From the NCBI GenBank assembly GCA_044892525.1, contig CM097885.1, forward strand, positions 158,968,001-159,032,000: a DNA stretch of 64,000 bases, written 5' to 3'. The translations under genes and the position numbers were made by a program. Numbering within the stretch: the stretch's first letter is position 1; each line of letters begins with the position of its first letter. Positions 4,871 to 64,000 of the stretch are shown here, piece by piece. The notes beneath the pieces are model-generated. The model made no database searches. It was not told the DNA's origin and was given only the letters and a program-made list of their open reading frames with translations. The stretch is from Schmidtea polychroa (taxonomy: Eukaryota).

Positions 4871-5400
4871 TCATTTTATTTCTGAATAATAACCATTTGT
4901 CCATTTCAATACTATAGGTCCTATAGTATAGGATAAAGCCATCATTGAACAACCTAATGGTCGTATCTCAGTTGATTGGGTAGAAAGCTGCTTCATATCC
5001 GCAATACAACGACATATTATGTCGCAAGGCATTTCATATCCATGTTTATATCTAAATCGAGCTGCTTCCATTTGTGCACGACATACTTGAGATCGATAAT
5101 CAGGGATCATACCAGTCATAACACCTCCAGTACTTTCAGTAATATTAAATAATCTTGTAGCTGAACTCTTCTCAATCATTTTATCTGGAACCTGTCTTTG
5201 TGTAGCTACTACATCACAATAATTGCATCGAATATCCACGGAAAGCAATCCACCACATAAATTTGATATCATTTTATTCTTTTCATAATTAATTGCCGCC
5301 ATCTTTTCTAACTCTTTACCAAAATTCATAAACCGAAATTCGATACCATTAACACCATTAATCATCGATCACCATTTCAAAAATCCATAAAAATTCTAAC
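4871..5400 (-). pseudogene. PSMA6: Proteasome subunit alpha type-6 (alpha1)-like, degenerate and 3'-truncated
   Basis: GGLLSVDIRCNYCDVVATQRQVPDK...RLFNITESTGGVMTGMIPDYRSQVCRAQMEAARFRYKHGYEMPCDIICRCIADMKQLSTQSTEIRPLG matches the alpha1 core; the N-terminus is scrambled and the frame stops just after GYY. Confidence 0.75.
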
Positions 5401-9582: not shown

Positions 9583-9849
9583 AATGTTGAACTGTATTTG
9601 ACTTTTGATTGATTTTGATGATCAATTAATATAGGTAATTGACCTATATTAATTGATCATCAAAATCAATCAAAAGTCAAATACAGTTCAACATTGTCTA
9701 GGGTAGGCAAGAAAAACGCATGCCGATACAAAAAATTACAAGATGAAAGAATATGATTCCAAATTTCAAAACAATTGTTTTGAAATTTGGAATCATATTC
9801 TTTCATCTTGTAATTTTTTGTATCGGCATGCGTTTTTCTTGCCTACCCT
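9583..9849. repeat. Two back-to-back long palindromes
   Basis: 9583-9695: 54-bp perfect arms with a 5-nt spacer; 9700-9849: 75-bp perfect arms with no spacer; 4 nt apart. Confidence 0.95.
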
Positions 9850-12437: not shown

Positions 12438-15318
12438 CAGTGGCGTACCAAGGATTTCTGGGGCCCTTGTGCAGATTTTGGGACGCACAAAATATTTGTC
12501 GAACAAGTGATCCGAGGAACCAAACCATAGGCAGGCTTGGGGGAAGGTGATTAGCAACTCTCTGAGTAAATTTGCGCATTTTAAAACAGAAATAGTAGCG
12601 TTTCGGGTTGGGTTGAAAGGATATTTTGTTACTTCTCGGTATTCTCTGTATATAGAATGGGCACATGCCAGGTACCATCATGATATAATGAACAATAATT
12701 GTTGTTATTGTCACTAATTTATTGAAACATAATTCTTAGAAAAAACTCAGATCATACGCTTATTTCACCATAATATAAAATTGAATCACATGATAAAAAG
12801 AAAGAACAAATCAAACATATGTCCTAATTTAGTTGGACACGATTCAAGTTTAAGATTTGTCAAAGGCTAAAAATCCCAAAAGTTAAAATGGCCGTTTGCG
12901 CGCCTTCTCTTGAGCAAAAATATCGACCACTTTTGAAATGTCAAGCTTTCTTGCATGTTCGTTTTCTATCGATAACATCGCTAGGTCGGTTAATCGCCCT
13001 TCATACATGGTACTTCTTAGATAGTTTTTTATGAGCTTTAATTTGGAAAATGATCGTTCGCAGTTTGCAACAGTCACAGGCAAAGTCAACAGCAACATGT
13101 AAGCGGTGCAGACATCACTTAATGCAGATGATAAAGCATAATAATCCACAAGTAGCAGTTGGGCAATTTCGAATATGGTTGGTTTGGTGGCTAAATTGGA
13201 ATGAAAGCTTGCGCGAAATGACAACAGTTGAGCTGGAAACGAAGGCGAAATATCGTTATCGTATTCTTTAGCTAATAATTCGGCCGCTGTATACAGTTCA
13301 TCGTCAGAGGCAATCAATAATGTAGATGGTAACAGAGCGCTAAACGTTGCAGCCAGTGAACTGAGGCTAAGAAATCGCAGTTTGATTTGTCTGCATGCTT
13401 TATCCACCGTAGCCAAAAATACGTTCAATCTGAAACGTTTCTCAATTGATGCAGCTTTCGGCTGCTTCGCGACTATGCGTGCCTGAACTCCCGAATAAAT
13501 ACCACTCATAGTAGCCGCGCCGTCATAGCCTTGACCGCGCAGTTTGGTGATTTCCAAACCATTATCTGTAATACATTTATTTACAAGAGTGTCACACAGA
13601 CCGCTAGCAGATGTATCATCGACCACCAAAAAACCCATAAATGACTCACAAATTTTCAACTTCACCGGTTTGCCTGCTTGGTCTGTTTCAATACAGACGT
13701 AACGAATAACTTGACTAAGTTTGTCGATTTTACTGATATCTTGGGTAGTATCCACCATAATTGAGAAAAATGGCGCAGCTTTTACGTCTTTAAGTATGTC
13801 CTCCTTGATGCATCGAGCTACCATGGTAATCACTTCATTCTGTATGGTGGGACTGAGATACTTCACAGTACCTTGGGGCATTCTCAACAATTTTTCAAGG
13901 ATGGGATCATACCTTGCAAGTAGGTTGATAACAGACAAGAAATTACCACAGTTTTCATTCCCGTTAGTTCCGACATCTTTTTCCCGGTGGCCTCTGAATG
14001 CCAAATTCGCCCCAGCCAGCATAAACGTGACGTTTACTATTCTGTCAATAACTTGTCTCCAGTAGCTTGCTTCCTTCCTTATGCCATCTTCAATTTCCGC
14101 TGTTAATGTTCTGTTCATGCGCCACTGTTCAAGAACCATGCAACATTGTATGTGGTCGACGGATTTTTCATGAATATCCAGCACATATGTCAGATGACCC
14201 CAGTCACGGAATCCTCTTACCCAAGACTCATCACGATTTTTCGAAAACAGCCAATATGCGTGGCAATATACGCAGTCGCCACTAGGCGAATAAGCTAGAG
14301 TAGTGCGTTTCAGTTTTACGCCTGCTTTATTGATTTTATTGTAAAACGATTCGGAGAAGCATCGTCCTTTCTGGCCGAGATCTCGTGGAAACGGACCAAG
14401 AGGTTGACATGGACCAAAGGAAATTATCAACAAATGCTCTCCGAAATTTGCTTTGTCAGTGAGATGTTTTAAAGCAGTTCGTGCCTCCACAAAAGTGTCA
14501 ATATTGCTCTGAGTAAAAGCTGAAGTAATTGAAGGGCCATATTTCTCATCGTCGGCGCTGTTTCCTAAATCTGGTGTCAATATTTGATCATCCGCCGTAG
14601 ATTCCACAGTGTCATTCTGCTCAGTGGCGACATCTATAGCCACCGCCATCTCTGAGTTGATCAAAGCTGAATTCGATTCAGTCACCATATCTGAAGTAGG
14701 CTTCGATATCGGTTTAATATCCACGGGCTTTAGAAATTCGTAAATTTTCGGCATTTTAGCGGCCTTCTGTTCTTGTTCCTCACGTGCTCGTCGCTTAGCA
14801 GCCCCACTTAAATATGACTTAGACATAGTTAAGGGTGTGCAGCTAATGCAATTATATAATATCCAACTAATTATGCAATTATTGTAAATTGATATACAAT
14901 AAGCAATCCTTTTTACCGCATAGTAAATATCAACAAAACTCTATGACCTCTGCCATGATGTCGTTATACCGCCATTTTGAATCGAGTAGGCAAGTAAATT
15001 GGATTTGACGTTTTATTAATAAACAAGTCCTCGTCACATAAAAAAACCAACGTCAAGTAAATCAAATAATTTAATAGATGAATGGGTGTGACATATGTGG
15101 TTTACAACTATATCCAATATAGATTCCTAATAATATTAAATGTATAAACCGTCCAAACTGTGGTTGCTGTCTTAATAAAAACAAAACAAACGCCAAAGTG
15201 ATGCTTGGTTTGATGACAATCGGGGAATTTATAATGCTCGAACGTATAAATTTTACTAATTTTTCGTCCTGGGCCCTTGTGCCGTGCACAACCTGCACAA
15301 CCTATTGCTACGCCATTG
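12438..15318 (-). mobile_element. hAT element (ZMYM1-like transposase), both termini intact
   Basis: TIRs CAGTGGCGTACC / CAATGGCGTAGC; 8-bp TSD TATTGAAT at 12430-12437 and 15319-15326; subterminal GGGCCCTTGTGC at both ends. Confidence 0.95.
12883..14826 (-). CDS. hAT transposase (TTF-type Zn finger, DUF4371-like region, DDE, dimerization domain) with an apparent in-frame internal deletion
   Basis: 647-aa open frame; motifs LAFRGHRE, FSIMVDTTQDIS, GQGYDGA, TVANCERSFSKLKLIKNYLRSTM; the HCxxHxLNL segment expected after QPKA is missing. Confidence 0.9.
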   Translation of the reverse strand: MSKSYLSGAAKRRAREEQEQKAAKMPKIYEFLKPVDIKPISKPTSDMVTESNSALINSEMAVAIDVATEQNDTVESTADDQILTPDLGNSADDEKYGPSITSAFTQSNIDTFVEARTALKHLTDKANFGEHLLIISFGPCQPLGPFPRDLGQKGRCFSESFYNKINKAGVKLKRTTLAYSPSGDCVYCHAYWLFSKNRDESWVRGFRDWGHLTYVLDIHEKSVDHIQCCMVLEQWRMNRTLTAEIEDGIRKEASYWRQVIDRIVNVTFMLAGANLAFRGHREKDVGTNGNENCGNFLSVINLLARYDPILEKLLRMPQGTVKYLSPTIQNEVITMVARCIKEDILKDVKAAPFFSIMVDTTQDISKIDKLSQVIRYVCIETDQAGKPVKLKICESFMGFLVVDDTSASGLCDTLVNKCITDNGLEITKLRGQGYDGAATMSGIYSGVQARIVAKQPKAASIEKRFRLNVFLATVDKACRQIKLRFLSLSSLAATFSALLPSTLLIASDDELYTAAELLAKEYDNDISPSFPAQLLSFRASFHSNLATKPTIFEIAQLLLVDYYALSSALSDVCTAYMLLLTLPVTVANCERSFSKLKLIKNYLRSTMYEGRLTDLAMLSIENEHARKLDISKVVDIFAQEKARKRPF

Positions 15319-25657: not shown

Positions 25658-27646
25658 CACCTAACTGCGAAAGTTAACATTGTCTATAATATACGTTGGT
25701 GTGCACACCACATGAGGTGAGTCACCAATTATATGACAATGTTAACTTAATTTCATTTTTTCAATTTTTCAAAAATCGTTTTAAGGTAAGTTTTTGAATT
25801 GAAGTAATTTTTAGGACTTGAATTTTGATTTTATATAATTATGAGAATATTATTCAAGTTCTTAAATATTACTGTTAGTCATCTTTTATAATTTATCATT
25901 TATAAATATATTAATAATTAAATTTCAGGTGTTTTTTTAGGAAATTTATGATATTTTATGCATTAATATGGAATTATTTCGCTAAAATGTAAGTTAGATA
26001 TTTTTATATTTATAAATAAATAAAATTAATCACCAAACACATTTATTTTTTTAAGACATTTAGGGAAAAATCGGCGCACATGAATGAAATAGTTTTTAAA
26101 TTTTTATAATCTTCTTTCTGCAGCTCATTTTCGATGGCTTCTTTGACGATGTCAAATCTGCTTGGGAAGGACATTGAACTGAATCCATTTGTCCTTGATA
26201 TTACTTTCTGATGCTGCCTTTGATTTTACTAAACACGCTTTCTATTGGATTGAGGAATGGGCTATATGGTGGCAGGTGTTCTATATAATTATTCGGAGAA
26301 ATTGCTCCACTATGAATTGAAGCATTGTCATGAATGAGATGGTATCCTGTCCCATTCAATTTTATACTTAATTCATTAATAAAATTTTGGTATGTATCCT
26401 TTTTGTAGGATCCTACAATTAATTGGTGATGAATTGCACCTTTCACACCTATTGCTAACAGAAATGACATGTTTTGTCCTCGATTATTTGAAACTATGGA
26501 GTATATTCTTTCTCCTTTTTTCTTCCTTCCGTAGGTTTGTGTAGTCCACGTATTGAAGCCGCATTCATCAATATAAACGATATTTTTATCTCGCCAGACT
26601 TCTTCGAGAAAACGCGTGACATACTCCATTCGGATTTGAAGTACGCGATCTGAATTTCTTGCTTCCACACATGGCCTTACCTTTTTAACCGTTATTAAGT
26701 AATTTTTTAGAAATCTTGAAATAGCAGTTGTGGATGCCGAGCAATTTTTTTGTAAAAGGAAAATTCGCATTTTTTCTGACGTTGCATAAAAATTGGCTTC
26801 GACAAAATCCAACAAATTATTTCCCTGTTCTTCTGAAATAATTTGTTTTCTGCCACTTCTTTTTCCTTTTGTAATTTCGGCATATTTCTTATATTTGTAA
26901 ATTATTGAAATAATTGAATTTTTGGGGATTCCGAGCAATCTTCCAAATTCTTTATAATTGTCCCCATTTTCAAATGCATTAATAAGCCGAATTTTGTCAT
27001 TGTCTGTAATTCTTTGAAAATATTAATTTGTTAAAATAATTAATTAAAATTTACGATTTGCGATTTTTTTTCTGCAAATTCGAAGTTGTCGAAGGACCTT
27101 CTTCAATATTTGAAATGGTACCTTCACACAAAGAAATATCTGTTATACTGTAAAATATTTTAATATTTTATATTTTAATGAATAAATCTTACATTGTCAG
27201 ATCTTCAACTTCGCAAAAAGCCACTGTGTCCTGTGAAATATCTGTAAATCTAAAGAAAGTTTATATTCTAAATTATTTTATAATTAAATCTTACGATGTA
27301 TCTTCTTTTTTTCCCTATAGCTCAACGTAGAGCAGTCAGAATCTGATTCAAAAGTTTTTTTGTACATAACTTTTTAAATAATTTTAAAATATTGATATGT
27401 TAATTATATGTTAATCAATGTGAATTTCGCATGAAAACACTTTACTTAATTTTGTATGTATTTTTCATTATGTGTGCTGTGCTTGTATGCTTAATTATTT
27501 TCTCTCACTTTTTAGATTCCTATAATAAATATGGTAAATTTCGCAGCATTAAATTTCTACACACAGGTAAGTTTGTGTGTTCCTATAATATATATTTATT
27601 GATTTTTTTTTAGATTGTAGATAATGTTATATTTCGCAGTTAGGTG
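25658..27646 (-). mobile_element. Tc1/IS630-superfamily DNA transposon
   Basis: ~30-bp TIRs CACCTAACTGCGAAAGTTAACATTGTCT / AGATAATGTTATATTTCGCAGTTAGGTG, each flanked by TA; transposase inside. Confidence 0.88.
26201..27020 (-). pseudogene. Tc1-like DDE transposase, C-terminus frameshifted
   Basis: HTH region, YIDECGFN, IHDNASIH, LPPYSPFLNPIE; the frame extends upstream of the track start (RITDNDKIRLINAFENG) and the C-terminal tail continues in another frame. Confidence 0.85.
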
Positions 27647-32260: not shown

Positions 32261-34145
32261 AACTTTACCTTGTGCGCTTTAAATAATTCGAAAAAATTGA
32301 AAAAATGTACTTTTACAATACAAAATCACAAAAAAACTACTGTTATTACCGCTACGCACTACAGGCTGTACCAATACATGAGACGACATAGCCCAACGCC
32401 ATAGGCTCGTGGAACTTACTCTACTATATGATACTTTAGATTGTTGTCATTTAAGATTTATTATATTAAATAGACAAACTTCCAAGGTGGGTCAAATGAT
32501 CCTGTTTGACCGTTAATGCCGGAGCCCATGCATTTCGTTAAAAATTGCAATTTTTTGATTTTAGGGGAATTTAAGGGTAATGAAGCAACTATTTCAACTT
32601 TTTATAAATGAATTTAATGACGGATTAAGAAGCAATTCGTTAATAAATCCAACTTTTAGGGTAGTTTTGTTAGATATTACAATTTAAGCTTTTTCTATAG
32701 ATATTAAGGAAATAATTTGTTACAATTTAAATATCTATTGATATGATTTTTATCATAATTCATGATAAATTATTTGATTTTATTGTTCAATATCAATAAA
32801 GATGTATTTATAATAAATTGTGTATTTGAAATATCGGTTTACATACAAAGGTGCAGAATTTAAGGAAAAGAACAAGAAAAACTTAATTTTTTTTATAAAA
32901 TATATAAAAATAAATTAATTAAATTAAATTTTTAATTAATTTGATTGTTTAAAACAACCAATTTAATACAAGATGCATGCAAAATCAAATCTGGCAGCAC
33001 TCGTGTATGGGTGTAGAGTTAATTAAAATTACACGCATTCCGATTGGATAAAGTGGCAGCAAATGCGTAGGCGTACAATTACAGTAAAAATAAATACCGA
33101 CTGAAAATTCATTTTATCAACTTTTTGGAATTTTTTGGAAAATTGGTATCGTCAATTTGTGAAATTATTAACTGTCTCTCAGCTTTCGGAGCTTATGAAT
33201 TCTATGCATTTGTGGTAAGTTTGTTTTGTATAAAGTAATTTTTAAGTTAATAAAATTTAACGTCCAATTTAATTTTTATCTTTTGTTCTTTTTATTATTC
33301 ATTTCTTCAAAATTTAACCATGTTTAGAGAGACAGCCCAAAAAATGTGGTCGTGGCCAATTAAATGCTAATATGAATTGTTCTACAAGAGTAGGCAGCTG
33401 GACGGGTAACAAGTGTCGCGACTAAAGATTTTTGTCTTCGGCAATAGGTAGCAATTGAAATAGTAAAGACAATAATCTAAGAAAGGGATAGATAATGAAC
33501 AGTAACGTAAGACCTTCTATCGGCAGTCCAGAACCCGAAAATGAGAATACAATGAGGAGTAGTTTTAGCAGTAGAGCTTACCTGCTCATTGATTTTCAGC
33601 CACTGTGTACATTACCAACATGGTCGTTGCCATGTGTATTCAGATGGTAAAAAGTAAAATAATCATAAAAGCGTTTAGGGAAGATTCGATTCCGAATCCA
33701 TAAGCAACCCTAGAACGTTTAAATGACACACCACCTAAGCGCTAACATTTTTATCGTTTAAAAAGTCAAACAATTTTATGGTTTGTATATGGTCTGAATT
33801 GCCTTGAACTACATAATCATTCATTAATTTTCTAATTTCTGTATCTTAAGAAGAATTTGTTTCATTCAATTCTTTCTGGCCACAAATTTTGTTGTTCTCA
33901 TAGTTGCGTTGTTCCTTCTTTCTTAATAAATAACAATCACAAAAATCTTTCTATTATCTTTAAATATATCATAAAATTATATCAGATCATCTAAATTATT
34001 TTAAAATGTAATCAATTAATTACCCAATTATTAATTTTTATAAAAAATAAATTTTAAATAAATTGCAGATACAATCATAATAATTCCATTTGTTTAAACT
34101 AATTACATTCAGTATCATTATTTGTATATTTTTATTAAATAACAA

Positions 34146-35541
34146 ATGGTAAATATTTAAATTGATTGTTGAGTCCATATTGTTTTTCAAAATATTTAGG
34201 AATCATTAAACAAGAAAGCAGTTGAAAATTTCTGTGAGTATTTGAAATGTGAAACTGTCCATCCAAATCCGGATTATTCGAAAGCTGTTGAATTTCTTAC
34301 ATCCCAATCAGTTCAGTTGGGATTGGAGTTAACTGTCATTGAATTGTGCCCGAACAACCCAATAGTAATAATGAAATGGAATGGTAGAAACAATGATTTG
34401 AAAAGTGCAGTGTTCAATTCACATATTGATGTTGTACCTGTGTTCCCTGATCAATGGAAATATCCTCCTTTCTCTGCTCACATCGATGATAATGGTAACA
34501 TCTATGCTAGAGGTTCTCAAGACATGAAATGTTGTGGCAGTCAGTATTTAGAAGCAATAAGACGAATAAAATTTCATTCACCAGATTTTATACCAGAAAG
34601 AAACATTTATATTTTATTCGTACCAGATGAAGAAGTTGGTGGTAGTAAAGGAATGGAAAGGTTTGTTGAAAGTCAACAATTCAATGAAATGAATGTTAGA
34701 ATCTGAAATGGATTTTGAATGTCTAAAAGTTATTCAACTTTAGATTGGAATCGTTATGGATGAAGGTATAACAAGCACTGAGAATAAGTATCCAGTGTTT
34801 TATGGAGATAGAATTTTATGTTGGATAAAAGTTCATATCAGTGGATCTACTGGCCATGGATCCCAGTTTATTAAAAATACAGCCGGGGTTAAACTTAAAT
34901 TGATTTTGAATAAGTAAAGACAACCGGCTATAAAATACAATTTTTAATTCTCCGTTAGATTTATGAATTTCCGCGAACAAGAGGAAACTAGAATGATAGA
35001 AAATAATCTTACTCTGGGAGATGTCACAACAGTCAATCTTACTGGTGTAACTGGAGGAGTACAGCATAACGTCATTCCGTCTCCATTCACTTTGGATTTC
35101 GATATTCGAATTAGTCCAAAAAGAAATGTAGCAGAATTTAAAGCCATGCTTAATGAATGGGCAAGAGAATGTGGCGATGGAATTGAATATGAATTTGTTC
35201 AGCACCCGTCAAGCGCGTACCTCACACCGATTGATAGCAGCAACAAATGGTGGGTAGCGTTTCAATCTATATGCAATTCCCTTAATATGGAAATCATTCC
35301 ACAGATATTTCCAGCTGGAACTGATAGCAGGTTTAATTGTCTGATTTTCCGGTATTGGTTTTAATAACAGTTCAGGTTTATCCGAGAAAAAGGAATCCAT
35401 GCAATTGGGTTTTCCCCAATCAATAATACTCCGTTTCTATTGCATGACCACAATGAATGCCTCAATGTCGATACGTTCATTCATGGAATCGATTTCTATG
35501 AAAAATTGATTTTGGAATTTTCAACGATGAAATATGATTAA
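34146..35541 (+). CDS. ACY1: Aminoacylase-1 (M20 peptidase family), 5 exons: 34146-34148, 34200-34694, 34744-34913, 34959-35330, 35376-35541
   Basis: Four GT-AG introns (51, 49, 45, 45 nt) give one continuous frame with motifs TVHPNPDY, FNSHIDVVP, YARGSQDMK, PDEEVGG, MDEG, GHGS, FPAGTDSRF, GFSPINNTPFLLHDHNE. Confidence 0.94.
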
Positions 35542-36543: not shown

Positions 36544-37496
36544 TTACAAACCGAAATTACCGTCCCAGTAGTTAAGCTGTACGTCTACTAATACTGTATT
36601 CATTAAACGTTGAAATGTTGCTGGAGCATTAGTTAACCCAAAGCGTAGTCTTATATACTCATAATAACCGTCCTCAATCACAAAAGCAGTTTTTCCGCGC
36701 CCCTCTTCCATTTGGATTTGAATGTACCCTTTATTTGCATCTATAACTGTGAAATACTTAGTATCCCTAAGTTTATCATATTGTCCTAGTGCTCTCGGGA
36801 ATGGGTATGAGTCTTTTACTGTTACATCATTTAATTTACGATAATCAATGCACATTATAATTTCCCCGTTTTTCTTTCTAACTGGTACAATAGGCGATGC
36901 CCATTGTGATAAACTTTGTTTTATTACACCTGCCTCTTTTAATTCTCTAATCTGTCGCTTTATTTCCTCCCTCAATTTATACGGTACGCTGTAAAGTCTT
37001 TGTTTTATTGGTCTAACATTCTCTGTATCAATCACATGTTTGATAATATTAGTATCTCCTAAGATGAATTCATGTTTTGCAAAAAAATCGCTATATTCAT
37101 AAAGTAGTGTTTGTAGTTGTAATTGTTGTGTTTTATCATAACATTTAATATTATTAGCTCTACTCGGTTCGACCATTTGTTCACTGTTATCCCTAATCGT
37201 TGAAATTTTGCACACCTAGATTCACCTTTGTGTAATTTCCCCAATTTCGTACCTTAATGAATCTTACTGTATTCCTTTCATAGTTCGCAATTCTTATTGG
37301 AATTTTCCCATGGTTAATATTACATTATGATTCCTTGCTATTGCTGTTTCTGGCTGGAAGATGAACGTGTTCTCACGTTTAATATTGACTTTTGTCGGGA
37401 TTATATGATAGCAGGGGTATTTTAATTCGAACGCTTCTAATGGAATTACTTCTGAAAATTTTGCGTTTTAATATACTGTTTTCCGCTTGACTATAC
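36544..37496 (-). pseudogene. Ty3/gypsy pol, linker plus N-terminal RT (downstream part of the interrupted element)
   Basis: SQWASPIVPVRKKNG...MCIDYRKLNDVT...GKTAF...FGLTNAPATFQRLMN; the upstream linker IPIRIANY...GTKLGK is frameshifted; truncated before YxDD. Confidence 0.92.
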
Positions 37497-37538
37497 TGGT
37501 GGGTTACAGGTGGTCGAATGATTAAGTGCTGTTACCAG

Positions 37539-39101
37539 CAGGGCTGTGGAGTCGTATCAAAATGGACCAACTCCGACTCCGACTCCGACTCCGACTCCGA
37601 CCTAGGTCTAACATGTATAAGATCTTTTTTTTTATTTAATACTATTAAATTTAGGTTTTTAAAAAATGAGCAAAAAATAAGTTAAATACAAAACAAATCT
37701 TTTTTAAAATATTATATTGTTTTATTCTTTGATCATAATTTTTTAATTTTTAAAATATATTTCTTAAAAATAAAATTGCTTCAATCAAATCTTCTTTAAG
37801 CAATGCACGCAGGTCTGACTTAATTATTTTCAGAGCAGAGAACAATCTTTCAACACTGACTTGCGTTGGCGGTAAAGCGGTTACAATTCTAGCTACATTT
37901 TGAATAATTTTTGGGTACACATCAATAGCTTCTTGGACGTTCAATTTCGATGATCGATCATATTTTTCAACTTCCTCCAAAGCGGTAAAAAACTCATTTT
38001 TAAACTTCTGCTCTTCTGTATCTGGTTCCTTTTCATGATATCGCTTTCGTTTTATAAGATCCAATTGATTTAAATATTTTTCAAAATCCACATCTTCATT
38101 TGAACTGGAAGAAACTGATTCCTGACTGGAGGTGATGTTAAAATGCTCGATCTGTGTTTCACGATTTAGTGCCGGAAAACATTTGATGCGAACGGTGATT
38201 TGATAGAGCGTTTCTTTGGCTTTTGCAATATGAAGGTCATTTAGTAATATTCGGCTCATTGGATCAATATAAATAGCGGCTAATAAAATTTCATTTTGCA
38301 AAAGCAGTAGTTCCCTTTTATTCATGGAAGATATAATAGCACTGGAAATCGGTTCATCAGTGCGGGACAACTGATAAATTAAGTTTTTCCACTCAAAAAA
38401 GAAGGTCCCAGGAGTTATATCTTCAGTTTGTAATTTTTTAGAATTTCCCATCTGATGTAATTGAAAAATGCTTAAGTAATGCCGATTTTAATTTTTTATC
38501 CATGTTGAGGCCTTTGAAAATACTAAATTTTTAACTGCAAATATTAAAAACAATACTATTAAACTCGAAACTTATTAAAGTAATTGCAAATAAATAATTT
38601 AAACACAACTTACGTTTTTAATGCACACAAAAAAAACTTTATTTAACTTCCCTACAACAAAAAATTTCACGATGTAGTTTTGTATTTATTAATAATTTCA
38701 GTTGTTGTCTAGTTTATTTTAAAAAAATTACTAATGCTCTTTAATTAAGATCAGCATGTATTTATACCAAAATTAAACTAGGATAATAATAAATTTATAT
38801 GGGTTTTAGAATTATTTGTAATTTTCTTATATTTACCTGTCTGACAACCGTTTTTTAAAAATATTCTTAGAGATTCTTAGAAAAGCAAAAGGTAAAAATT
38901 GTTTATTAAATAATTCTGAAAAAGATAATTTAATTGCTATACAAAATCCTAAAAATGTTGAAAATTCCTCTTAAAATTTTAAATTTTACTCGGAGTCGGA
39001 GTCGCTTCTGTTAACTCGACTCCGACTCCAGCTCCGACTCCCCAAAAATGCACGACTCCGCGACTCCGGACTCCGACTCCAGCTCCGACTCCACAGCCCT
39101 G
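37539..39101 (-). mobile_element. Internally deleted hAT element nested in copy A
   Basis: Perfect 16-bp TIR CAGGGCTGTGGAGTCG/CGACTCCACAGCCCTG; 8-bp TSD GTTACCAG; (CCGACT)n subterminal arrays; ORF 37750-38451 ends in the hAT dimerization motif PPTQVSVERLFSALKIIKSDLR. Confidence 0.96.
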
Positions 39102-39320
39102 GTTACCAGCGTAACCCAACATGCAACATTAGTTTCCGCTTGGTACCCGTTGAGTAATCAACGTTGGTACTGTACCAAGGGGTTGAATACTCGCAAAAAG
39201 TGAGCGCATCAAAGCACTATAATTGTCGAGTACTCCATGGGTTCACGGACTACCGATAGAAGGTGTGTGTCCGATTTCTCAGGTCCCTTTATCAAAATTG
39301 TTTTCCCAACCTTACACACA
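39102..39320. ncRNA. Conserved hairpin-rich terminal block of copy A (candidate structured RNA/ssDNA element)
   Basis: Closely similar to 63168-63390; several stems conserved, one compensatory pair; no known RNA family recognised. Confidence 0.4.
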
Positions 39321-39472
39321 AGCTCTCGTTTCTCAGGCAATCATAAGCATCTCAGACATTATCTAACTCTACAAAATACGTATTATTGTAACAACAAAAA
39401 AAATAAATATTATTTTAGTACTACAAGGTATATCAAACACACTACAAAATTACATAATCATGGAGTAAAAGT

Positions 39473-39942
39473 TCAACTCGGCCGGTTGGTGGGGCCGGTT
39501 AGTCCCGTCGTAGACGTTTGCGACGAACCCGCTTGCCTTTCGTATTCAGCCAGTCTGGCCTTCTTTAATTTTTCACGGATGTTTCGCCCAAGCCGTTTTC
39601 TTTTGGGCTTATTTTCAGCGGCTGGGGGATATATGGTTGCGAGTTCAACGGCCAGTGGCCTTATTTGTCTTGCTGCGGATTCCTGCACAAACTGCTCATT
39701 TCGTTCGGTTTCGAGCACCCGCACCTGCACCTTCAGGGCGCGAATCTCCATTTGGTCCTGAGCGGCCTGTGTCTGCAGCTGGAGGATCTGGGCGGTTTTC
39801 TTCTTCATGGCTTCGGGACTAAACCAGGTCCCTTCGAACTCTCGACATTTTCCCTTCAACTTGTCCACCCGGACCCGGAGTTCGTCAGCACGTTGTTGGG
39901 CCTGCTCCCGATCCTTCCGGAGATTTTCCATTAACTTGTACA
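39473..39942 (-). CDS. Coiled-coil protein of unknown family (ORF2 of copy A)
   Basis: Open GC-rich frame after a TTTTAG acceptor; KCREFEGTWFSPEAMKK motif shared with the 44860 and 52044 copies; basic C-terminus KPKRKRLGR. Confidence 0.7.
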
Positions 39943-40166
39943 CTAAAACACAACAGTTGTCAGTTTCCTTCATATCGAATAAAATGAAAATGTAAATTAT
40001 TAATTAACATTAGCAATTCCCGGTTACGACCTTATTGCACTTATTCAATTTACTATATGAATTCTAAGACTCCAAAAAAGAAATTTCCTTTATTTAAATA
40101 ATACACATTAGAAGATAGCGGTGCTATAGATATAATGACTAAAATAAGTTATTTATAGTCTAATAA

Positions 40167-40532
40167 TCACGCTTGGCGTTTGCGGGGCCTTCCTCTTTTT
40201 CTCGGGGGTACCGTGGCCTCCTCCAATTCTTCCAGGGGCACTCCCTCCCTTTCTGCCCGGATTTGCATCTCTATCTTCTTAAGCCGGATCTGAGCGGCTT
40301 TCACATCCCAGGCCGCTTGATCTCGGGCCTCCTGTAACCGGTTATTCTCCGGCTCCACCTTCACCCATACCGGGGCATCTACTTCGGGGCCCGTCCGGAT
40401 TACTCGATCTGCGCAATCCAGGTCCCGTCCCTGACCCCACCGATGTATATGGTACCAGATGTACCGGGTCCGGAGTCGGGTGATCGTCTGCTGGTCAGTA
40501 CCCTCGTCACTGCTAGAGCTGGATTGAGACAT
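40167..40532 (-). CDS. AT-hook protein of unknown family (ORF1 of copy A), 121 aa
   Basis: ATG at 40532 two nt after a TTACAG acceptor; ITRLRTRYIWYHIHRW motif; C-terminal PRKRGRPRK AT-hook; homologous to 51094-51558. Confidence 0.75.
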   Translation of the reverse strand: MSQSSSSSDEGTDQQTITRLRTRYIWYHIHRWGQGRDLDCADRVIRTGPEVDAPVWVKVEPENNRLQEARDQAAWDVKAAQIRLKKIEMQIRAEREGVPLEELEEATVPPRKRGRPRKRQA

Positions 40533-41792
40533 GTCTGTAACATAAACATTAAGACCCATACATAACCACTGTGACTTATAAATAGACGTCACAACAAAAC
40601 ATACAGAAATTTCTTGTTTAAAATCAATAATACTTAACTACTAAATTTATTATAATTAATATAAATACTTCTAACATACCCAAATTTTATTTAATATATT
40701 AATATACTTTTTAATTAAGTAAATTAAGGAAAAATTTACTAAAGTTAAGTGTTAACGTTAAAAAATTCGTACCCGAACCGAAAATCTCCAAAAATGGTTT
40801 TGTTTAAAATTATTATTTTAATCATTCGGCATTTATTTACCACTGGTTGGTAATTTGGATTTTATAAGTTAAAATTTTTGAATTTTTTAGGTAATTTTTA
40901 GGTAAAAGTGAATATCTCCACTAAATGCGGTTACGCCAGGCGAAGGGTACTAGTGGTGAGCTCAGTCTCTTGCTCACTTACTCTTCCCCTGGTTGTATTC
41001 GTTATAAGTGGTAAAATCATCATTTATCCGTTTGTGGTAATCTATTTCTTGATCTTATATACCTAATTTAGGGACAATTTGATGATTATTTTCCCCAGCT
41101 GGAGCTATCGAGGTTCAGTTTCAGCAGTTCGTCCTATGACTCTTGATCAGGAAATCATGGCTTGTATTCATAAAGATTGTGTGAGTTGATTGATTGAAAG
41201 GGAAAAATTAATATTGAATCTTTTTTTAGTTGCAATTGACGACTTGTAGCCTTGCACGAACATTGATTAACTTGTTTGTATTCTGTGCGCTTTCAATATT
41301 CTATTGTCGTTTCAATATGAGATTTTTATTTGTCTAAATTTATTGCAATTGTCAAATTTTATTAGTCAGTTATTATTGTAAACAAATTTATTCGAACAAA
41401 GTAGTAATATTTAATGAATTTATAAATGTGAGCAACCGTTAAACATGATAAATATACTAAAGTCGATGAATGAAAATACTATTACCATAATATCTGCATG
41501 TAATTTGCTTTTATATGAAGAAACCCAAATATTTGGTTGGTTTGTAATGTGGTTCTAATTTAGAAATTTTTCATCTAAGTCATTTGGTATTAATGAACAT
41601 GAAGCAGTTATGGTTAATATGCTTTTGCCTACTTTAATTGAATTTATAAAGAAGTTGTATGTTTGTTTTTCGTTCGGGATTTAAGGGTCAGATTGCATAG
41701 TTGCTCATACGTCCTCACCCATATCCCCCGGTGACTTGAATAATGGTAAGGGGGGGTGTTGCTAAAAATAGTCTTCAGAATTCTGATCCCTC

Positions 41793-41803
41793 TGATTGGC
41801 TCG
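41793..41803 (-). promoter_or_regulatory. CCAAT box (CGAGCCAATCA) in copy A
   Basis: Identical 11-mer at 49836-49846 in copy B; both lie ~1.25 kb upstream of the ORF1 ATG. Confidence 0.55.
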
Positions 41804-42399
41804 GAGGGTCGTTTCTAAATTTAATTTCTTGGGGAAATCCTAAAATCAATATCAGATTGGGATATTAACTTTGACAAGTAATAATAATTGTTAATAATAA
41901 TAATATATAATCAGTGTAGTATTTATACATTTACTAATATATTCCACCATGACTAAGTGTATATGTATATATATATCTACAATTAAATTATATATATTAA
42001 GAACAATATTAGTAAAAATAATAGTCAAGTCATATATAACTGATCATTAATAGTAATAATAGCAACAATAGAGATAANNNNNNNNNNNNNNNNNNNNNNN
42101 NNNNNNNNNNNNNNNNNNNNNNNNNNNNNNNNNNNNNNNNNNNNNNNNNNNNNNNNNNNNNNNNNNNNNNNNNNNNNNNNNNNNNNNNNNNNNNNNNNNN
42201 NNNNNNNNNNGATAATAAGAATAATGGTAATAATGATGGTAATATTAGCATTAACAGCAATAATATTAGGGTTAATATAATTTTACATGGTACAATTCGA
42301 AGCTTATATTTCTTATTTTAAAGATTTCTATTCTATGATTTAGAAAGTTACTTTTGGTAATTTATAAATTTCTGTTTCTAATTTAAATTTTATATTTTT

Positions 42400-42665
42400 C
42401 AATTTACACATTTATACGTTATAATTTCTAATTGTATATATTATAGTGTATAACTTAATAATTTATGATTTTATACTTTATATTTTATAATTTTATATTT
42501 TATAATTTATAATTTTATGTTTTACGATTCAGTGGTTTAGATTTTATAATTTATAGTTATATATTTCGTAGTTCATAATTTTATATTTAATAATTCACGA
42601 TTTTTAGGTTTTATACTTTAGGATTTTATATTTCATAATTTATGATTTTATAATTTATACTTTAT
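42400..42665. repeat. Degenerate (ATAATTTTATATTT)-like low-complexity tandem array inside copy A
   Basis: Repeated TTTTATA units. Confidence 0.7.
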
Positions 42666-44372
42666 GAATTTCTAGTCAGCTTTACATGACTTTTTATAAG
42701 TTACTTTTGTGGGATCATCATAGTTTTCTAAAAGGTTTTCAAGTTTGTCGGTAGCTATTCCCAGACTCTATTCCCGAAGTTCCACGTTTATGTATAATTA
42801 ATAAAGAAACATTTCCGATACCCAAAATCTATAGCTCCTAATCGGGATTTTCCATTAATGACTTACATCAATATAATTAGCTCTAAGATCTTACAACTAT
42901 TTATACAATTATAGCTAAATATTTATACATTAATGAATGTTTAAAGTGGGAATTGGATTTAAAATCCTTACATTTACTTTGAATCAGCATAGCTAGATTA
43001 AGTTGTACCTGCACGTATGCCGAATATCTTTCTTATCTCTATTACTTTATCAAAATTTTCTATTACAAAATTTAGTTCGGCATATGTCCAAGTATAATTG
43101 AAATTACTGTGATGAATCAACTAGCTACATTAATGTGAGTGCAGAATTGTGTAATTTTAGGTACGAGCTCTGCTCAAATTAGAACCTTAGTGTAGAGTTA
43201 TTATTCAGGATTTTAAGTTTTGATTTTAAATATGTGTTGCATAGAAGGTCGGGAAGAATATTGCTTCCATGGCCCCACTGTGACCACTTCCACAAACCTT
43301 AGTGTTGAGTGTTGAGTCAACCATTTACGATCGACCTTACATAAATACAAAGAGTCAGGCGTAGGGTTTCCTCGACCTAACTCCATGGCAGGACCATGAA
43401 GTAGTTCGACCTCCGGCTGACCCGAACAAAAAGGGTTTTTATAGATAATAATAATGCATGTGTGAATGAGAAGTAGAATTTAAGAATTATATGCAGGACC
43501 GATCAGAGACGTACTCGGACGCCGCTGATCCGTCGAGAATTACTAGAACATAAAATCTTAATAATATTCTTAATGAACAAAAGATTGATATTAATATAAT
43601 TACGTAGCATAAAATTACATCAAATCAAAAGGCTTACTAATAATTTTCCAGAAAATTCTTCAGCAAAATATTGGCATAAAGATTGATTGTGACTGAAACG
43701 TGTCAGTATATATACATATTTAGTACACGTGTATGTATCGATGCATTAAAACAAACTCGAATTCTTTTTATTCCAGAATTTTCTATTTTGCGATTTTGAT
43801 ATTTTTAATGGCAATTTTTGTGCCATAATTTTTGTTTTTATTTTTATATTTTTATTTTTTAATTATTTTTCGTTAAATTGACGTCCATGATGGATTTGAA
43901 ACGGTTCCAGAACATTCTATTTTACTTTTAATTTAATTTTTATTCTAACGGGTGTTTTTATGAATTTCTTTTTAAGATTTTTTATTTTTATTACTAATTT
44001 ATTTATTTTTTCCTAAATTTTATTGTTTAAGGTAGCTTTTATGATGGTCATCACCATTTTTATGGAATGTTCTGGGTTTTTCTGGAATTTTTTACTGTTT
44101 TTACCATCTTTTAAGTTATTCGAGTTTGTTTTTTGTAACTCTATGTTTATTTGGTTATTTTTGAGTTAGATTTTGCATAACTTCTTGCTTTTGTATAATT
44201 TTATTTAATTTCTGTGTTTATTTTTTTTGTTACTTTCTCCTTTAATTACCATTGTTTATTTGGTGTAGTTTTGATATATTTAGTTATACTTCTTGCTTTT
44301 TGCATGCTGTGTACTTACACATTTCAGTCGCAATTAGATATTTTGGGTCTAGAAGTCAGTTCTAGCCCAACA

Positions 44373-45251: not shown

Positions 45252-48200
45252 TGACACTAACCTAAATATCTATGATGAATGTATTTTTGTTTAATCGCTT
45301 GCTCTTTATTATAATTAAGTATTTAATATTGATATTCTGTTTGATTTTTATTACTTTGATTAAACTTAAACAAATAATTAAATTTGGAAAATTTCTTCAC
45401 TAAGTCATATTAAATTCGATAATAAATCAACTTAAAATTAAGTAAAATTGAGGTAGCCCGTTTTCATCTGAGGCCAAAATAAAATTATAGTCCTGGAAAT
45501 ATTTGGATATCGACGATAAATTTGATTTAGTATTAAACTGTATATAAAAGTGTCAAACTTATAACTATGTGATATGAACCACTACAATATAATATATTAG
45601 CGAAATCACGGATAATTTGACAGAAGGATAACTGACAACCTAACACTTTCGAATTCTTGAAATCTCGTTTTGCTTGAAAGTTTTAATATAGGAGTCCATG
45701 GTAGATGGTATTCACTAAAGAATAGGATAAATCACAAAACGATGAACAGGAATGTAGTGTGGTGTTAATTTATTGATTGTAACTTTTTAATTGTAATTAC
45801 GTTTTGTTGCCTGCAGTGTTTTTTTGAAGATTTACAGGATTTTGAATCCCCAATCAAAAAAACTATATAGCAATAATTTACCATAGTAAATTATCACTAA
45901 AGGATTATTGAAAAATAAATAAAAACTATTTAAAATTAATAAACGATAAACCTGATGAATAAACGATTATAAGAGAAGCCAGACCATAGACGAAATTAGA
46001 TTAGAACAAAGAAATTCATCCATAGGTATTAACATTAAGTAAAATCAGAAGAACATTAAAAATTAAACAGTTCTAGAAGAAAATTTTATTTTAGACCCAA
46101 AATTTCCCCGACTATCATAGGTTGAATAATATCTATATCTATTCTAAAACTATTAGAACTGAAAAACAGAAATAGATTTGCTGTGCTTTTTGAAACAAAA
46201 CACTTCAGTTATTACAGGAACAACTGTACCTCTACCAATCCTGATAAAACAAAGAAACTTCGTCATCTATCGTATTTTAGAGAAATATCAGAAAACTATT
46301 GTAAACCGAACTCTAGAGAAATCTGATCTAGAAGTTTTAAACAACCATTATTGTAAGAAGATCGAAACTAATACATATCTTGACAAATTAAAAGTATTCG
46401 ATTGAAAGTCTAATCTCATCTAGAAGAAAAACTGCAGGTCATACAATATTTTTATACAGTTGTTGGGCTAGAACTGATTTCTAGACCCAAAACTCTAAAT
46501 TGTGACTGAGGTGCGTTGGTACATAGCACGCAAATAGCAAGAAGTTCAGTTAAATATAAAAATACATCAAATAAACAATATTAGTTAAAAGGAAAAACAA
46601 CAAAAATATAAACACAGAAATTAAATAAAATGGTACAAATGCAAGAAGTAGTGCAAGAAACTAACTCAAATATAACAAAGAAACATAAAAATTACAAAAA
46701 ACAGACTCGAATAGCTTCGAAGATGGTAAAACATTAAAAATTCTAGGAAAATTCCAGAACAGTTCATAAGAATGGTGACAGCCATCATAAAAGCCACACA
46801 GAGCAATAAAAGTTATCAAAAATAAATAAATTAGTCGTAAAAATAAAAATTTGAAAAAGAAAATCAAGAAAAACATCATAAAAATAAAAAATTAATTTTA
46901 AATTTATATGGAATGTTCTGGAATTGTTCCAAATCCATCATGGAGGTAAATTTAGCAAAAAATAATTGGAAAATAAAAACTTAAAAATAAAACTAAAAAT
47001 TATGGCATAAAAATTGCCATTAAAAATATCAAAAATAGAAAATTCTAGAATTAAAAGAATTCGGGTTTGTTTTAATGCATCAATACATACACGTGTACTT
47101 GCACACACAAAAATAGGTATCTATACCAACGCATTTTAGTCATAAAAACATTCTTTATGCCAAAAAAACCTCTTGACAATATTTGGAACAACCACGAATA
47201 GTAAGGGATTTTTTGATTGTTTTATTGTTATAATTGTATTATTATAAATTTATATGATTATCCTCATGTTATTATTAATATTACCATGACTGAGTTTAAC
47301 TTTCGATTTTTTTGTTTTATTTATGCTAAACAAGAGTGATCAACGTCGTCGTAGACGTATTTAGCTCGAGACATTGACCAGCCTTGTTGCCAACTTAAAA
47401 TCCTTTTCATGCACAAAAGAATGGGTCTACGACCCCAAATACACTAAAATTAAAGTTTTCATAGCCAGAGGTCGCCACGAACTAATGGTGTTCAACCAGG
47501 AGTAGGGCGAGTAAAATCCATCTTGGTAGTTGGCATACTCACAGGGACTATGCGGACGAATTAAATTTTGGGATATTAATCATGGGTACATATCACACGT
47601 ATTCAGTGTAATCGGGAAAATACGTAAATTTTAATTAATTTGACCTTGTCATAATTTACATATGTAATCTGTACACTCAACTTCATTATAGAGAACACCA
47701 CATTAGCGAAATCTAAACGGGAAATATCCCATACTCAATATTATACAAAGACACTCAGTTAATTGCACGAAATTGCTCAAATGTTTAATATGCTTAATAT
47801 CGAACATTATTAATATACTCTAATTGATATTATTTATAATTATGGTTAATCAAAAATTTAATAATTAAAAACCCGAATTTAGACCAAGTTCAATAAACCC
47901 AAGATATTGTGTAATTATCCAGTTTACGATACCTTAATTTTGATAAATTTAATACCCTTGTAAATGCTGTTAACCGAACCTTACATAAGGTCATAAAAAA
48001 TTAATTGGAAACATAGTATGGTAGGTCCATCATTTTATATTTTCCTTATATGGCCTCCTATAATTCATATTTAGAGAATCCTAGCCAGAATTTAATAGCT
48101 CAAAGGCTCTTCGAATAAATTATAATTCTAATATACTATTTCAGAAAACTATATTTTGGTTCAAAAACCCAAAATCCCCATCGAAGTAACCGACCCTTTC

Positions 48201-56078: not shown

Positions 56079-58456
56079 ACGGGTAACTCCATTCCTAATA
56101 GCATGACTATTCCTAATAATATGATCATACTATTATTCCTAATAAAAAGTCATACTATTAAATAGTATGACCATTAATATTTAATGATTTTTTAAAATTC
56201 TTTTGTATCAATAATACAATTTCTATAATAATATTTTCTTATAAATCACCCCAATGAAAAAAAGAAGATTTACAATTGCTTTTAAGAAAGAAGTGATTTC
56301 ATATATGGAGCTTGGAAATTCATGTTATAAGGCAAAAAACATTTTCGGCGACAGAGATAATCAATCTATGTTTCAGCAGTGGTATAAGAACAAAAAAGCG
56401 ATTAGTGCACAATCTGCATCGCTGAAAAGAGCGTTTGGAGGCGGAAGGAAGCCTTTGCTGGGATCTCTTGAAGAATTAATTTTTGATGAAATTATTGAAT
56501 TAAATATAATGAAAATAAAAGTTACTCGAACTTTCATATCCGATCGCGCTATTACATTAGGAGAACAAAATTATATTGACATCAAAGCTTCAAGCCGCTG
56601 GATTGACGGTTTCATGAAAAGAAAGGGATTGTCGCTTAGAAGAGCAACTAACTTTACGAATTTATCAGATGATACGTTAATTTCACATGCCATTAATTAT
56701 ATGGGTTTTTAACAGATACGATCCCTAATGTTGACTTGTCGAAAACATTGTTAATGGATGAAACAGCTGTTTATTTCGAGGATAATAGGAACCATACAGT
56801 TCATTTAAAAGGACGGAGACACGTAATAATGAAACCAACAGTGTTTTATTCAGCCCAAAGAAAAGAAATATAAAACTTGTGGTAATACCCGGCGGATTAA
56901 CCCCCTATATACAAGTAGGAGATATTTTTAAAGAATTTAAAGACATAATTTTCAGTTTTATTAATATTTTATTATAATTTTATTAATATTAGGAAATAGA
57001 ATACATGTTAGGTTCGATGGGTAGTTACTCAAACTAACGCAGTTGTAAATCTGATTCCAATAGATTTTACTGATAGAAAAGCGTGTAATTGATTTTATGC
57101 AAATAAATAAATAACAAATATGGTTTTAAATATTTATTAAATATAAATGGATATATATGTTACAAAAACGATTCAAAATAAATGAAACCCAACCCTGGCT
57201 GTACGCTGAAGTTCAGATAACGGTTATTCAAACCGCCCTAAAGATTACTTATAAGTTTCAAGGCTGGCCCTAAATGCGCCAACAGCCCTATATAGGTGAC
57301 AAGACAAGATAAGGGATTTCCCGAGATTTATACGCGATACTATCAACCCAAAAAATTGGTTGATAGTTTATTTGTATAAGCCAAAACAGCTACAAAAATA
57401 TTTGCTGATGACTAAGCCCTGTTAATTTTTTATACAATATAAATAGAAATTAATTAACTAATTTATCTGTTCGGATTCCCAAGTGTCCTCTGTAAAAACC
57501 AGAAATAGTTATGGTTAAATCAAAACTAAAATTCTTTCGCGAAGTTAAAATTCCAAGATCGCTTCTTTCCAAATATTAACAGAACGTAGATCGATTTGTC
57601 GTAATTAATTTTGACGCATTTATTAAATTATCTGTAAATGTTAGATCTAGTTTGTGTGAGATTCGATGATTGCAAGTATTTGTTGATAGTAACTTCTCGA
57701 ATTGGTATGCTTCAGTTGATCTGACTATTGTTCGTCCAACTAATTTGTCAAATTTTTTTCTGACTATTTTTGTCCTCCAACTAAAATTTTGTACTGATAT
57801 TTATATTATTTTAAAATAATTAATTCTATTTTTAGTAATTTTTTAATTACTAAATATATGTAATTATATTTATTAAAATATTATTATTATTTATAATCTA
57901 AATAGTAATTTTTAATTACTATTTATATTTTAATCCTAACTATAGTAATTATTTTCTATTTTAAGTAATTATTAAACACTAATTATAGATAATTTATTTA
58001 ATTTTCTAAAAAATTCCTAATGTAATTATCCCGGCTCCTACTGACCCCAACATACACAAGACGTGGAAATCCCAAGGCTCCTAGCCAAGGGCTTGTGAAT
58101 CTTTGGATTAGTAATGCTTGGAGCTCTATGTCTATCCAAAACATAAAAAACTCTTCAATCGGCTGGGTTTTCGGAGAATTTCGAGGATTGGCATATATCT
58201 AAACATGATATTTATGGTGAGAGATTCCGAAACGAATTTATTAATTCGATATTTGAAAATTCAACACCAACTCAGAACGAGTACGATTTTGAACCAGATG
58301 TATTTGCTCTAGCTGATGAATGATTAAAAATACAATTATGTTTTTTATGTTTCTATAAATTCAAATAGTATGACTAATTTACTTAACCATGAAAAGAATT
58401 TTTATTTTTGGTCATATAATTAAATAATATGACTCATACTATTTGGAGTTATCCGT
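56079..58456 (+). mobile_element. pogo/Tigger-type (POGK-like) transposon, decayed, with ~1 kb internal insertion
   Basis: TIRs ACGGGTAACTCC/GGAGTTATCCGT flanked by TA; CENP-B-type HTH ORF 56254-56712, LMDETAVYF, VIPGGLTPYIQVGD, and C-terminal YTRRGNPKAPSQGLVNLWISNAW at ~58050. Confidence 0.8.
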
Positions 58457-63127: not shown

Positions 63128-64000
63128 TGGTAGGTTACTGGTGGTCAAATATTTATTCTTTACTGCTGTTACCAGCGTAACCCAAAATACAACGTTGTTT
63201 TACCGCTTGATACCCGTTGAGTAATCAACGTTGGTACTGTATCAAGTGGGTGAGTACTCGCAAAAAGTGAGCGCACCAACGGCTCTATAATTGTCGGTTA
63301 CTCTATGGGTCGACGGACTACCGTTATAAGGTATGTGTCCGATTTACTCAGGCCCCTTACCGAAATTGTTTTCCCAAACACCCTCATACAAATTTTCAGT
63401 TTTGGTTCGATTAATATACGTAGTTTGAGACGCGGTCTCGTAATGCTACTAATTACCCCATCAAAGAATAATCTTCTGCAATTTATTGATCAACTATCAG
63501 TGTTCACCATTCATCAATCGCAAACATTCGCGTTTATTTCAACAATCTTTACAAATTAAGGGAAAAGAAAACGGAGAATGTTCGAGAACTGAATTAGTTA
63601 AATTAGATCTGGTCTTTACACTTGAGTACGGAATAGGTGATGTCCATGTAAAATACGTTATTTCGCTCGTCATTACTAGTTCCACACCCGTTACTACATC
63701 CCTTAACATTATTGATCGAAAGTTCCTCATTATTGTGCATTGAGAAGTTCATACGCACGCCACGTTATAGCAAAACTAGTTTAATGTCTCTCGAAGCTAA
63801 TTATATCACCCTGCCGATTATTGTTACCAAAATTCATGATAATGTATTACTGAAGTTATATTATTAATCATATCTTTATTATTTCAAACAACGCGCCATA
63901 ACCGTCGTTATAGTGACGCTTGCCTGTGTGTGATTACATAACGGCATTTTTGCTTATGTGTGCTAGGGCGACTCCTCAGACAGATTTGCAGGTGTGTACT
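63128..64000 (-). mobile_element. Copy D: terminal block of another family member, extends beyond the window
   Basis: Begins TGGTAGGTTAC (cf. TGGTGGGTTAC at 37497) and aligns with 37497-37538 plus 39110-39320 for ~260 bp. Confidence 0.78.

Follow-up and report, generated by a model that had tools for sequence, protein, structure and literature searches.

In avian retroviruses, the end of the LTR just 5' of the primer site forms the U5-IR and U5-leader stems, which are needed for the initiation of reverse transcription, and a structure similar to U5-IR was reportedly described for Tf1 by Lin and Levin in 1998. Ty1 and Ty3 are described as forming extended tRNA–RNA initiation complexes (PMC5371799, PMC3592414). 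For retroviruses and the yeast Ty elements the structures of the leader RNA are known in detail, but hardly at all for animal gypsy elements, for which alignments seldom reach the depth needed. Planarians carry giant gypsy-like LTR retrotransposons, Burro and GYPSM1 (PMC6431247), and Burro elements are reported as known and expressed (PMC8532177, PMC11410931). The thousands of copies and many diverged families of such an element in Schmidtea polychroa yield a covariation-backed model of a ~150-nt core together with a primer-site stem. The fold of the core in a retroelement leader appears to be previously undescribed, though structured U5 and primer regions are of an expected kind, and nothing is overturned by finding structure at a primer-adjacent place.

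The window analysed is a 64,000-nucleotide stretch of the S. polychroa assembly (GCA_044892525.1, contig CM097885.1, positions 158,968,001 to 159,032,000), in which a sequence-only reading had singled out a hairpin-rich block at 39102-39320 that it took to be terminal. The block belongs to the 3' end, the last ~270 bases, of a solo LTR on the minus strand (37497-44372), recognised by its TG..CA ends, its target duplication and paired copies elsewhere. Position 39102 is the insertion site of a hAT DNA transposon, and the end of the element lies at 37497: in related copies the similarity extends ~35 nt past the left edge of the block and stops abruptly at TGGTGGG, and in the window those ~35 nt are found at 37497-37538, on the far side of a 1,563-bp hAT element (37539-39101, minus strand) with 16-bp terminal inverted repeats, a hAT dimerisation domain and an 8-bp duplication, GTTACCAG, at 37531-37538 and 39102-39109. 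Once this insertion is subtracted the solo LTR is ~5.3 kb long; its ends read TGGTGGG..CCCAACA, with ATAC on both sides as a 4-bp target duplication (CAAG at another copy). Its insertion site adjoins an unrelated gypsy reverse transcriptase (RT) region (RVT_1 match; 36544-37215, minus strand), and the flank is not common to other copies. Helitron/Helentron, Polinton and TIR-transposon ends were weighed from the termini and are ruled out by the paired direct repeats around gag-pol. In 5' LTR copies the LTR end is followed by an 8-nt spacer and then by a tRNA-Pro primer site; no primer site adjoins the solo LTR of the window, which is therefore a relic, and window copies without a primer site are passive relics. 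Besides the copy in the block (copy A), the window holds copy D, a 273-bp LTR-end fragment of a sister subfamily with P1-P4 (63128-63400, minus strand, E 4e-07), and a third core copy of the short-LTR family D type (33499-33649, plus strand), found with a covariance model and missed by BLAST from copy A. At 46461-47231 a piece of a related LTR, from its opposite (U3) end, lies in inverted orientation with 78-81% identity.

Two loci have paired LTR copies, at distances of 33.3 and 36.9 kb, with long ORFs between them in the window-minus sense, opposite to the strand taken in the sequence-only reading. A scan of 20 ORFs found zinc knuckle, MATH, Monjiviricetes fusion, protease, RT, RNase H and integrase domains between the paired LTRs, as well as ankyrin, TRAF and BIR/RING domains, all on the minus strand of the block; three more families that were checked consist of complete fusion-PR-RT elements, the period being 26 kb. 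The host, which the sequence-only reading had not recognised, is a Burro-type giant gypsy retroelement whose layout matches Burro/GYPSM1, a likeness to Burro-1 to -4 that rests on the domain layout described in the literature, not on sequence identity. As far as the published description goes, those elements too exceed 30 kb, occur in thousands of copies, carry gag zinc knuckles, MATH, ankyrin and BIR domains, and place a fusion glycoprotein between gag and protease, followed by PR-RT-RH-IN (PMC6431247). The sections of that account to which we refer concern the proteins and do not mention an LTR-end RNA structure, a tRNA-Pro primer, a spacer or LTR-encoded ORFs.

The block is a high-copy repeat. 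Queries with copies A and D gave 2,424 (40 of them scored) and 3,110 first-look candidates, respectively, in the 781-Mb genome, and two relaxed core patterns gave 6,063 and 6,012 matches (controls 0 and 26), so that ~6,000 genomic copies share a common core of P1-P3; all copies analysed come from this one genome. Clustered at 70% identity, 70 primer-site loci fall into five families and one disrupted copy, and all five families have the same spaced motifs 70-150 nt ahead of the LTR end. Among the 59 copies nearest to A and D the primer site adjoins just four, the others being solo LTRs, 3' LTRs and fragments, and these 59 show no common truncation point that would mark strong-stop DNA. A young and abundant 14-kb derivative (L208-L209, C1:5730001-5745000), whose cluster accounts for 25 of the 70 primer-site loci, has a 1.64-kb LTR and as its sole ORF a gag-like one of 877 codons; it retains the core, the primer site and the U3-side junction, as expected for signals required in cis. 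No copy outside this genome was found in pattern scans of viral and metagenome contigs: the single pattern match in viral contigs and the five in metagenome contigs are attributed to chance because the flanking stems are absent.

On the minus strand the core consists of three domains. P1 (39246-39273) has an outer stem whose pairs covary, an internal loop, CC/GG inner pairs and a UUCUA-type apical loop, and it is followed by a linker, GAACCC (39239-39244). P2 (39185-39235) has a long outer stem, a pyrimidine/CAC internal loop, AG/CU pairs, a U-G pair that is near-invariant (44/46 rows) and a variable apical hairpin. P3 (39139-39179) has an outer stem, an 8-nt AGYACCAA bulge facing one G, and an inner hairpin. 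The most conserved parts of the core are the unpaired ones: CT[TC]CTA in the P1 apical loop (38/43 alignment rows), CTCAC in P2 (43/43) and CCAA in the P3 bulge (41/43). A single-sequence fold of the minus strand of 39133-39277 recovers the whole model (z -3.78, 0/200 shuffles equally stable), as against z -2.18 and 6/200 shuffles for the plus strand, and RNAalifold on a 16-row alignment predicts P2 and P3 as in the model and differs in the inner pairs of P1.

Of the stems proposed in the sequence-only reading, the quoted strings are exact: CTTGGTAC (39139-39146) with GTACCAAG (39172-39179) in copy A, CTTGATAC (63206-63213) with GTATCAAG (63239-63246) in copy D, and three hairpins called invariant, together with CGGACTACC, in both copies. 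The stem said to covary between A and D does so, being the outer stem of P3, and its covariation holds in deep alignments. Three of the five proposed stems are real (P1 and the outer and inner stems of P3), and the CTCGC and GTTAC hairpins are not kept in the deeper alignment. CTCGC-AAAAA-GTGAG can form in 5/43 rows, and its CTCAC half, present in 43/43, is the internal-loop strand of the longer stem P2, which had been missed; GTTAC-CAGC-GTAAC has a rival in a longer stem that reaches the LTR end (P4), and it is broken in 9/70 family-A copies whose loop is not GTAA. The apparent invariance of the hairpins is an effect of the 87% identity between A and D (over 211 nt), and the inner stem of P3 covaries across families.

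For the covariation analysis 40 diverse loci were chosen by eye among the first 100 rows of each relaxed-pattern listing, and a covariance model was trained on 16 copies outside family A. This model retrieves copies A (E 7e-13) and D (E 4e-07), both on the minus strand, and gives 48 matches in 45 of the 51 loci searched. In the resulting 48-row alignment, which had been fitted to the structure model, 91.7% of 1,580 cells pair (33-42% in slid controls) and 28 of 34 pairs show two-sided changes, a figure matched by 0/500 shuffles. Five decayed or misaligned rows were removed before both significance tests, leaving 43 with a mean identity of 58%. Significance was assessed with our own tree-aware G-test, which approximates R-scape and is not R-scape itself: at E<0.05 six of 10,296 pairs are significant and all six belong to the model, as do 15 of the top 16. 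In a structure-blind MAFFT alignment all three significant pairs, and eight of the top nine, are again in the model. The model pairs include 135 G-U and 32 A-C cells, which identifies the sense RNA as the folded strand; G-U asymmetry had been thought not to settle the strand, and together with the gag-pol orientation it settles the sense strand of the block as window minus. Neither test yields a significant pseudoknot pair, and no unpaired palindrome suited to dimerisation is conserved, none occurring in more than 2/43 rows. As had been anticipated, the block matches no known family: Rfam covariance models run against the window give nothing at the block at E<=1, and against eight loci at E<=10 they give four weak matches far under gathering scores, one of which overlaps a core (E 5.1). 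No published description of this fold was found in the literature covered, to which Repbase entries and Grohme et al. 2018 (with its supplements) do not belong. The structure is real and well supported, and its function we infer.

On the sense strand an 18-nt primer site follows the 5' LTR after 7-8 nt and complements the 3' end of the genome's own tRNA-Pro(UGG). The exact 17-nt primer-site pattern has 1,077 genome matches (control 0), and these are not tRNA genes, since ARAGORN finds none in 30/30 primer-site loci; the tRNA-Pro(UGG) genes themselves are tandemly arrayed, one unit every 475 bp (C1:130901009 onward, L158), with 1,555 pattern matches genome-wide. The core is present at 67/70 primer-site loci. 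In retroviruses the usual spacer between the LTR end and the primer site is ~2 nt; here 7-8 bases separate the terminal CA from the primer site in 69-70/70 loci, which implies unusual end processing by integrase. HIV-1 has a primer activation signal, and complementarity of the GAACCC linker to the T-arm of tRNA-Pro is here partial and not significant: the linker occurs in 23/43 rows, 28% of shuffled tRNAs score as high (7% at 7-mers), and no tRNA complementarity outside the primer site is significant in the 43 rows. A primer-activation-like extra contact with the T-arm through GAACCC is possible and, by these counts, unsupported.

Folds of the whole leader add a long stem, P4, running from just past P3 to the LTR end. 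In the window its 5' arm (39102-39126, minus strand) has a CUG-GWAA-CAG hairpin that the hAT insertion cuts, and its 3' arm lies together with the integrase attachment end (..CCACCA) at 37497-37507 (minus strand). In 38/38 distinct arm pairs, representing 67/70 loci, P4 pairs 4-7 of the 7-8 spacer bases and stops 0-3 nt ahead of the primer site, and in 32 of the 38 it is more stable than at least 99% of shuffles. Because the spacer lies outside the LTR and is found only at the 5' junction, P4 is selected in the 5' leader RNA. The complementarity of P4 and spacer is family-matched, the arms changing in concert between family A and the other families; the cognate duplex is the most stable in 4/5 family rows only, family E being a near tie and the 5' arm of family A scoring -22.8 with the 3' arm of family C against -20.7 with its own. 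The CTG/CAG arm, the alternative to the GTTAC hairpin, is kept in 67/70 family-A copies.

Five LTRs carry promoter-like modules at +335 to +846, and family E has none by the same pattern. A CCAAT-like box, a TATA-like box and a splice-donor-like site occur near the LTR start (L209:6250-6420; window 33040-33220; L212, L213), and a second copy of the predicted first exon closes the short intron in families B and C. The promoter-like modules, at 0.35-0.9 kb into the LTR, suggest that transcription starts a long way before the block, which would then belong to U5 or R; we infer that it lies in U5. A separate ~135-nt twin-hairpin block (L209:6590-6740; L213, L218) recurs in families C, D and E, its copies being 82-93% identical.

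Taken together, these observations make it rather likely that the LTR-end block acts as a predicted four-stem 5' leader RNA, one that prepares reverse transcription from the tRNA-Pro primer and labels the RNA as cargo for packaging. The leader would fold into P1-P4; P4, by analogy with the U5-IR stem, would keep the primer site at the base of a helix; and the near-invariant loops (the UUCUA loop, the Y/CAC loop and the AGYACCAA bulge) could dock the element's Gag/nucleocapsid or RT, or make tertiary contacts, the bound protein then promoting packaging and initiation. That P4 is tied to the primer site is no proof of a role of P1-P3 in priming. Of what the sequence-only reading had proposed, an undescribed cis-acting RNA, the selected structure stands, with priming and packaging as candidate roles, and action as single-stranded DNA, dimerisation through a palindrome and self-cleavage find no support in the present tests. 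As with U5-IR, a stem formed by the LTR end lies directly 5' of the primer site (38/38 arm pairs); it differs in taking a 7-8-nt spacer into the stem and in being preceded by three more domains with near-invariant loops. Ty1 and Ty3, in the parts of the published accounts that bear on this, share a structured 5' RNA beside the primer site and possibly an extra pairing with the tRNA T-arm, whereas the site here is a single 18-nt tRNA-Pro block, not a bipartite one, and no pseudoknot was detected. Statements related to a primer-site-presenting stem occur in portions of two earlier accounts (PMC3601003, PMC5371799).

A bolder reading, which we regard as unlikely, takes P1-P3 as a new class of retroelement RNA module, a domain that folds by itself and whose invariant loops recruit RT or Gag, or carry out chemistry, within an unusual replication scheme. 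Hepadnaviral epsilon, which recruits its polymerase, offers a parallel. The scheme would combine the 7-8-nt primer spacer and a multi-kilobase U5 with the lack of a polypurine tract, such a tract being absent before the 3' LTR in five families. In its place stand a conserved AATTGCG/CGCAATT hairpin and a GC-rich non-purine motif (L046:3646-3700, L209:5690-5735, L212:4606-4660) with 1,061 genome matches (control 0), close to the 1,077 of the primer site. The missing polypurine tract is an oddity of this group, and the other Ty3/gypsy LTR features stand.

It is similarly doubtful that P1-P3 form a response element of the Rex/Rev type, bound by an LTR-encoded protein so that intron-containing genomic RNA is exported from the nucleus. 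The candidate binding protein would be the product of ORF G2 (39473-39943, minus strand), which is coiled-coil-like, has a TWFSP motif and a basic KRKR cluster, lies behind a splice-acceptor-like site, and is conserved in families B, C and E; it has no Pfam match, no relative at E<=0.001 among 93 candidates and no convincing Atlas match. Its KRKR/RxxR cluster is kept in four autonomous families, it ends 260-340 nt before the core, the LTRs carry both donor- and acceptor-like sites, and the gag-only family keeps the core in an LTR without G2, as a signal acted on in trans would be. In the sections of the HTLV account that deal with it (PMC12789967), RexRE is described as a stem-loop within the LTR to which a viral protein binds, and the likeness to HTLV-1 RexRE/long R and HIV TAR extends to a multi-stem LTR RNA in an element that encodes a small basic protein; there is, however, no sequence or Rfam similarity to them, and the structure here stands at the primer site, not at the transcription start. 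Against nuclear export also speak the fixed place of the core beside P4 and the primer site across families and the twin-hairpin block of families C, D and E, which is another candidate for that job. A second LTR-encoded ORF, G1 (40167-40532, minus strand), has no Pfam match and ends in RKRGRPRK, which we take to be AT-hook-like; G1 and G2 both lie behind acceptor-like sites, and solo LTRs could express them.

Leader function is also preferred to the improbable alternative that 3'-end formation at the 3' LTR is governed by the structure instead of a nearby AATAAA, in the manner of the long structured R of HTLV-1 and BLV. Over the final ~700 nt of their LTRs, families A, B and D have no positionally conserved AATAAA or ATTAAA, while AATAAA is described as the most strongly conserved motif in the LTRs of animal Metaviridae (PMC3601003), and the consulted portions of published work offer a precedent for structured-R 3'-end formation in HTLV (PMC12789967) and a parallel in foamy virus (PMC3694450). 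An RTCAT-like candidate cleavage motif is, however, explained as the P4 arm that pairs with the spacer found only at 5' LTRs, and AATAAA sites occur between the block and the promoter-like modules, which are 1-4.5 kb further upstream. That P1-P3 are a new self-cleaving or otherwise catalytic RNA is very improbable. The fold is compact, its unpaired residues are near-invariant despite 58% mean identity, and the P1 loop closed by CC/GG loosely recalls HDV P3/L3; yet there is no Rfam ribozyme match, core motifs of hammerhead, hairpin, twister, pistol and hatchet ribozymes occur in 0-2/48 rows per strand (in agreement with the earlier failure to recognise a ribozyme core), an HDV-type P2 or catalytic C could not be placed by eye, so that the topology is incomplete, no pseudoknot pair is significant, and a cut directly before the primer site would sever the template of strong-stop DNA. 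Least probable of all is action in single-stranded minus strong-stop DNA, or as sites on the DNA that integrase or transcription factors would recognise: DNA synthesis begins with this block, which also contains the attachment end, and for copy D the plus-strand fold is slightly the better one, but the G-U excess (135 against 32 A-C) and the U-G pair of P2 would be mismatches on the DNA strand, and double-stranded sites are not expected to show compensatory changes.

The core and P4 are small enough for direct probing and priming assays, and the core serves as a sensitive marker by which every Burro-type LTR can be traced, even those of non-autonomous elements missed by BLAST. LTR copies are also contained in near-identical tandem units of 14.2 and 15.8 kb (C3:94.74-94.78 Mb; C1:39.42-39.47 Mb), which may reflect duplication or an assembly artefact. 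Apart from the LTR, the window contains two neighbouring near-perfect DNA palindromes of 113 and 150 bp (9583-9695 and 9700-9849), at which miRNA matches are far under gathering scores, as well as a proteasome subunit exon (4871-5368), a hAT transposase (12883-14940), a Tc1-type transposase (26201-27022), an M20 peptidase gene (34200-35520) and a Tc5-type fragment (56245-56712).
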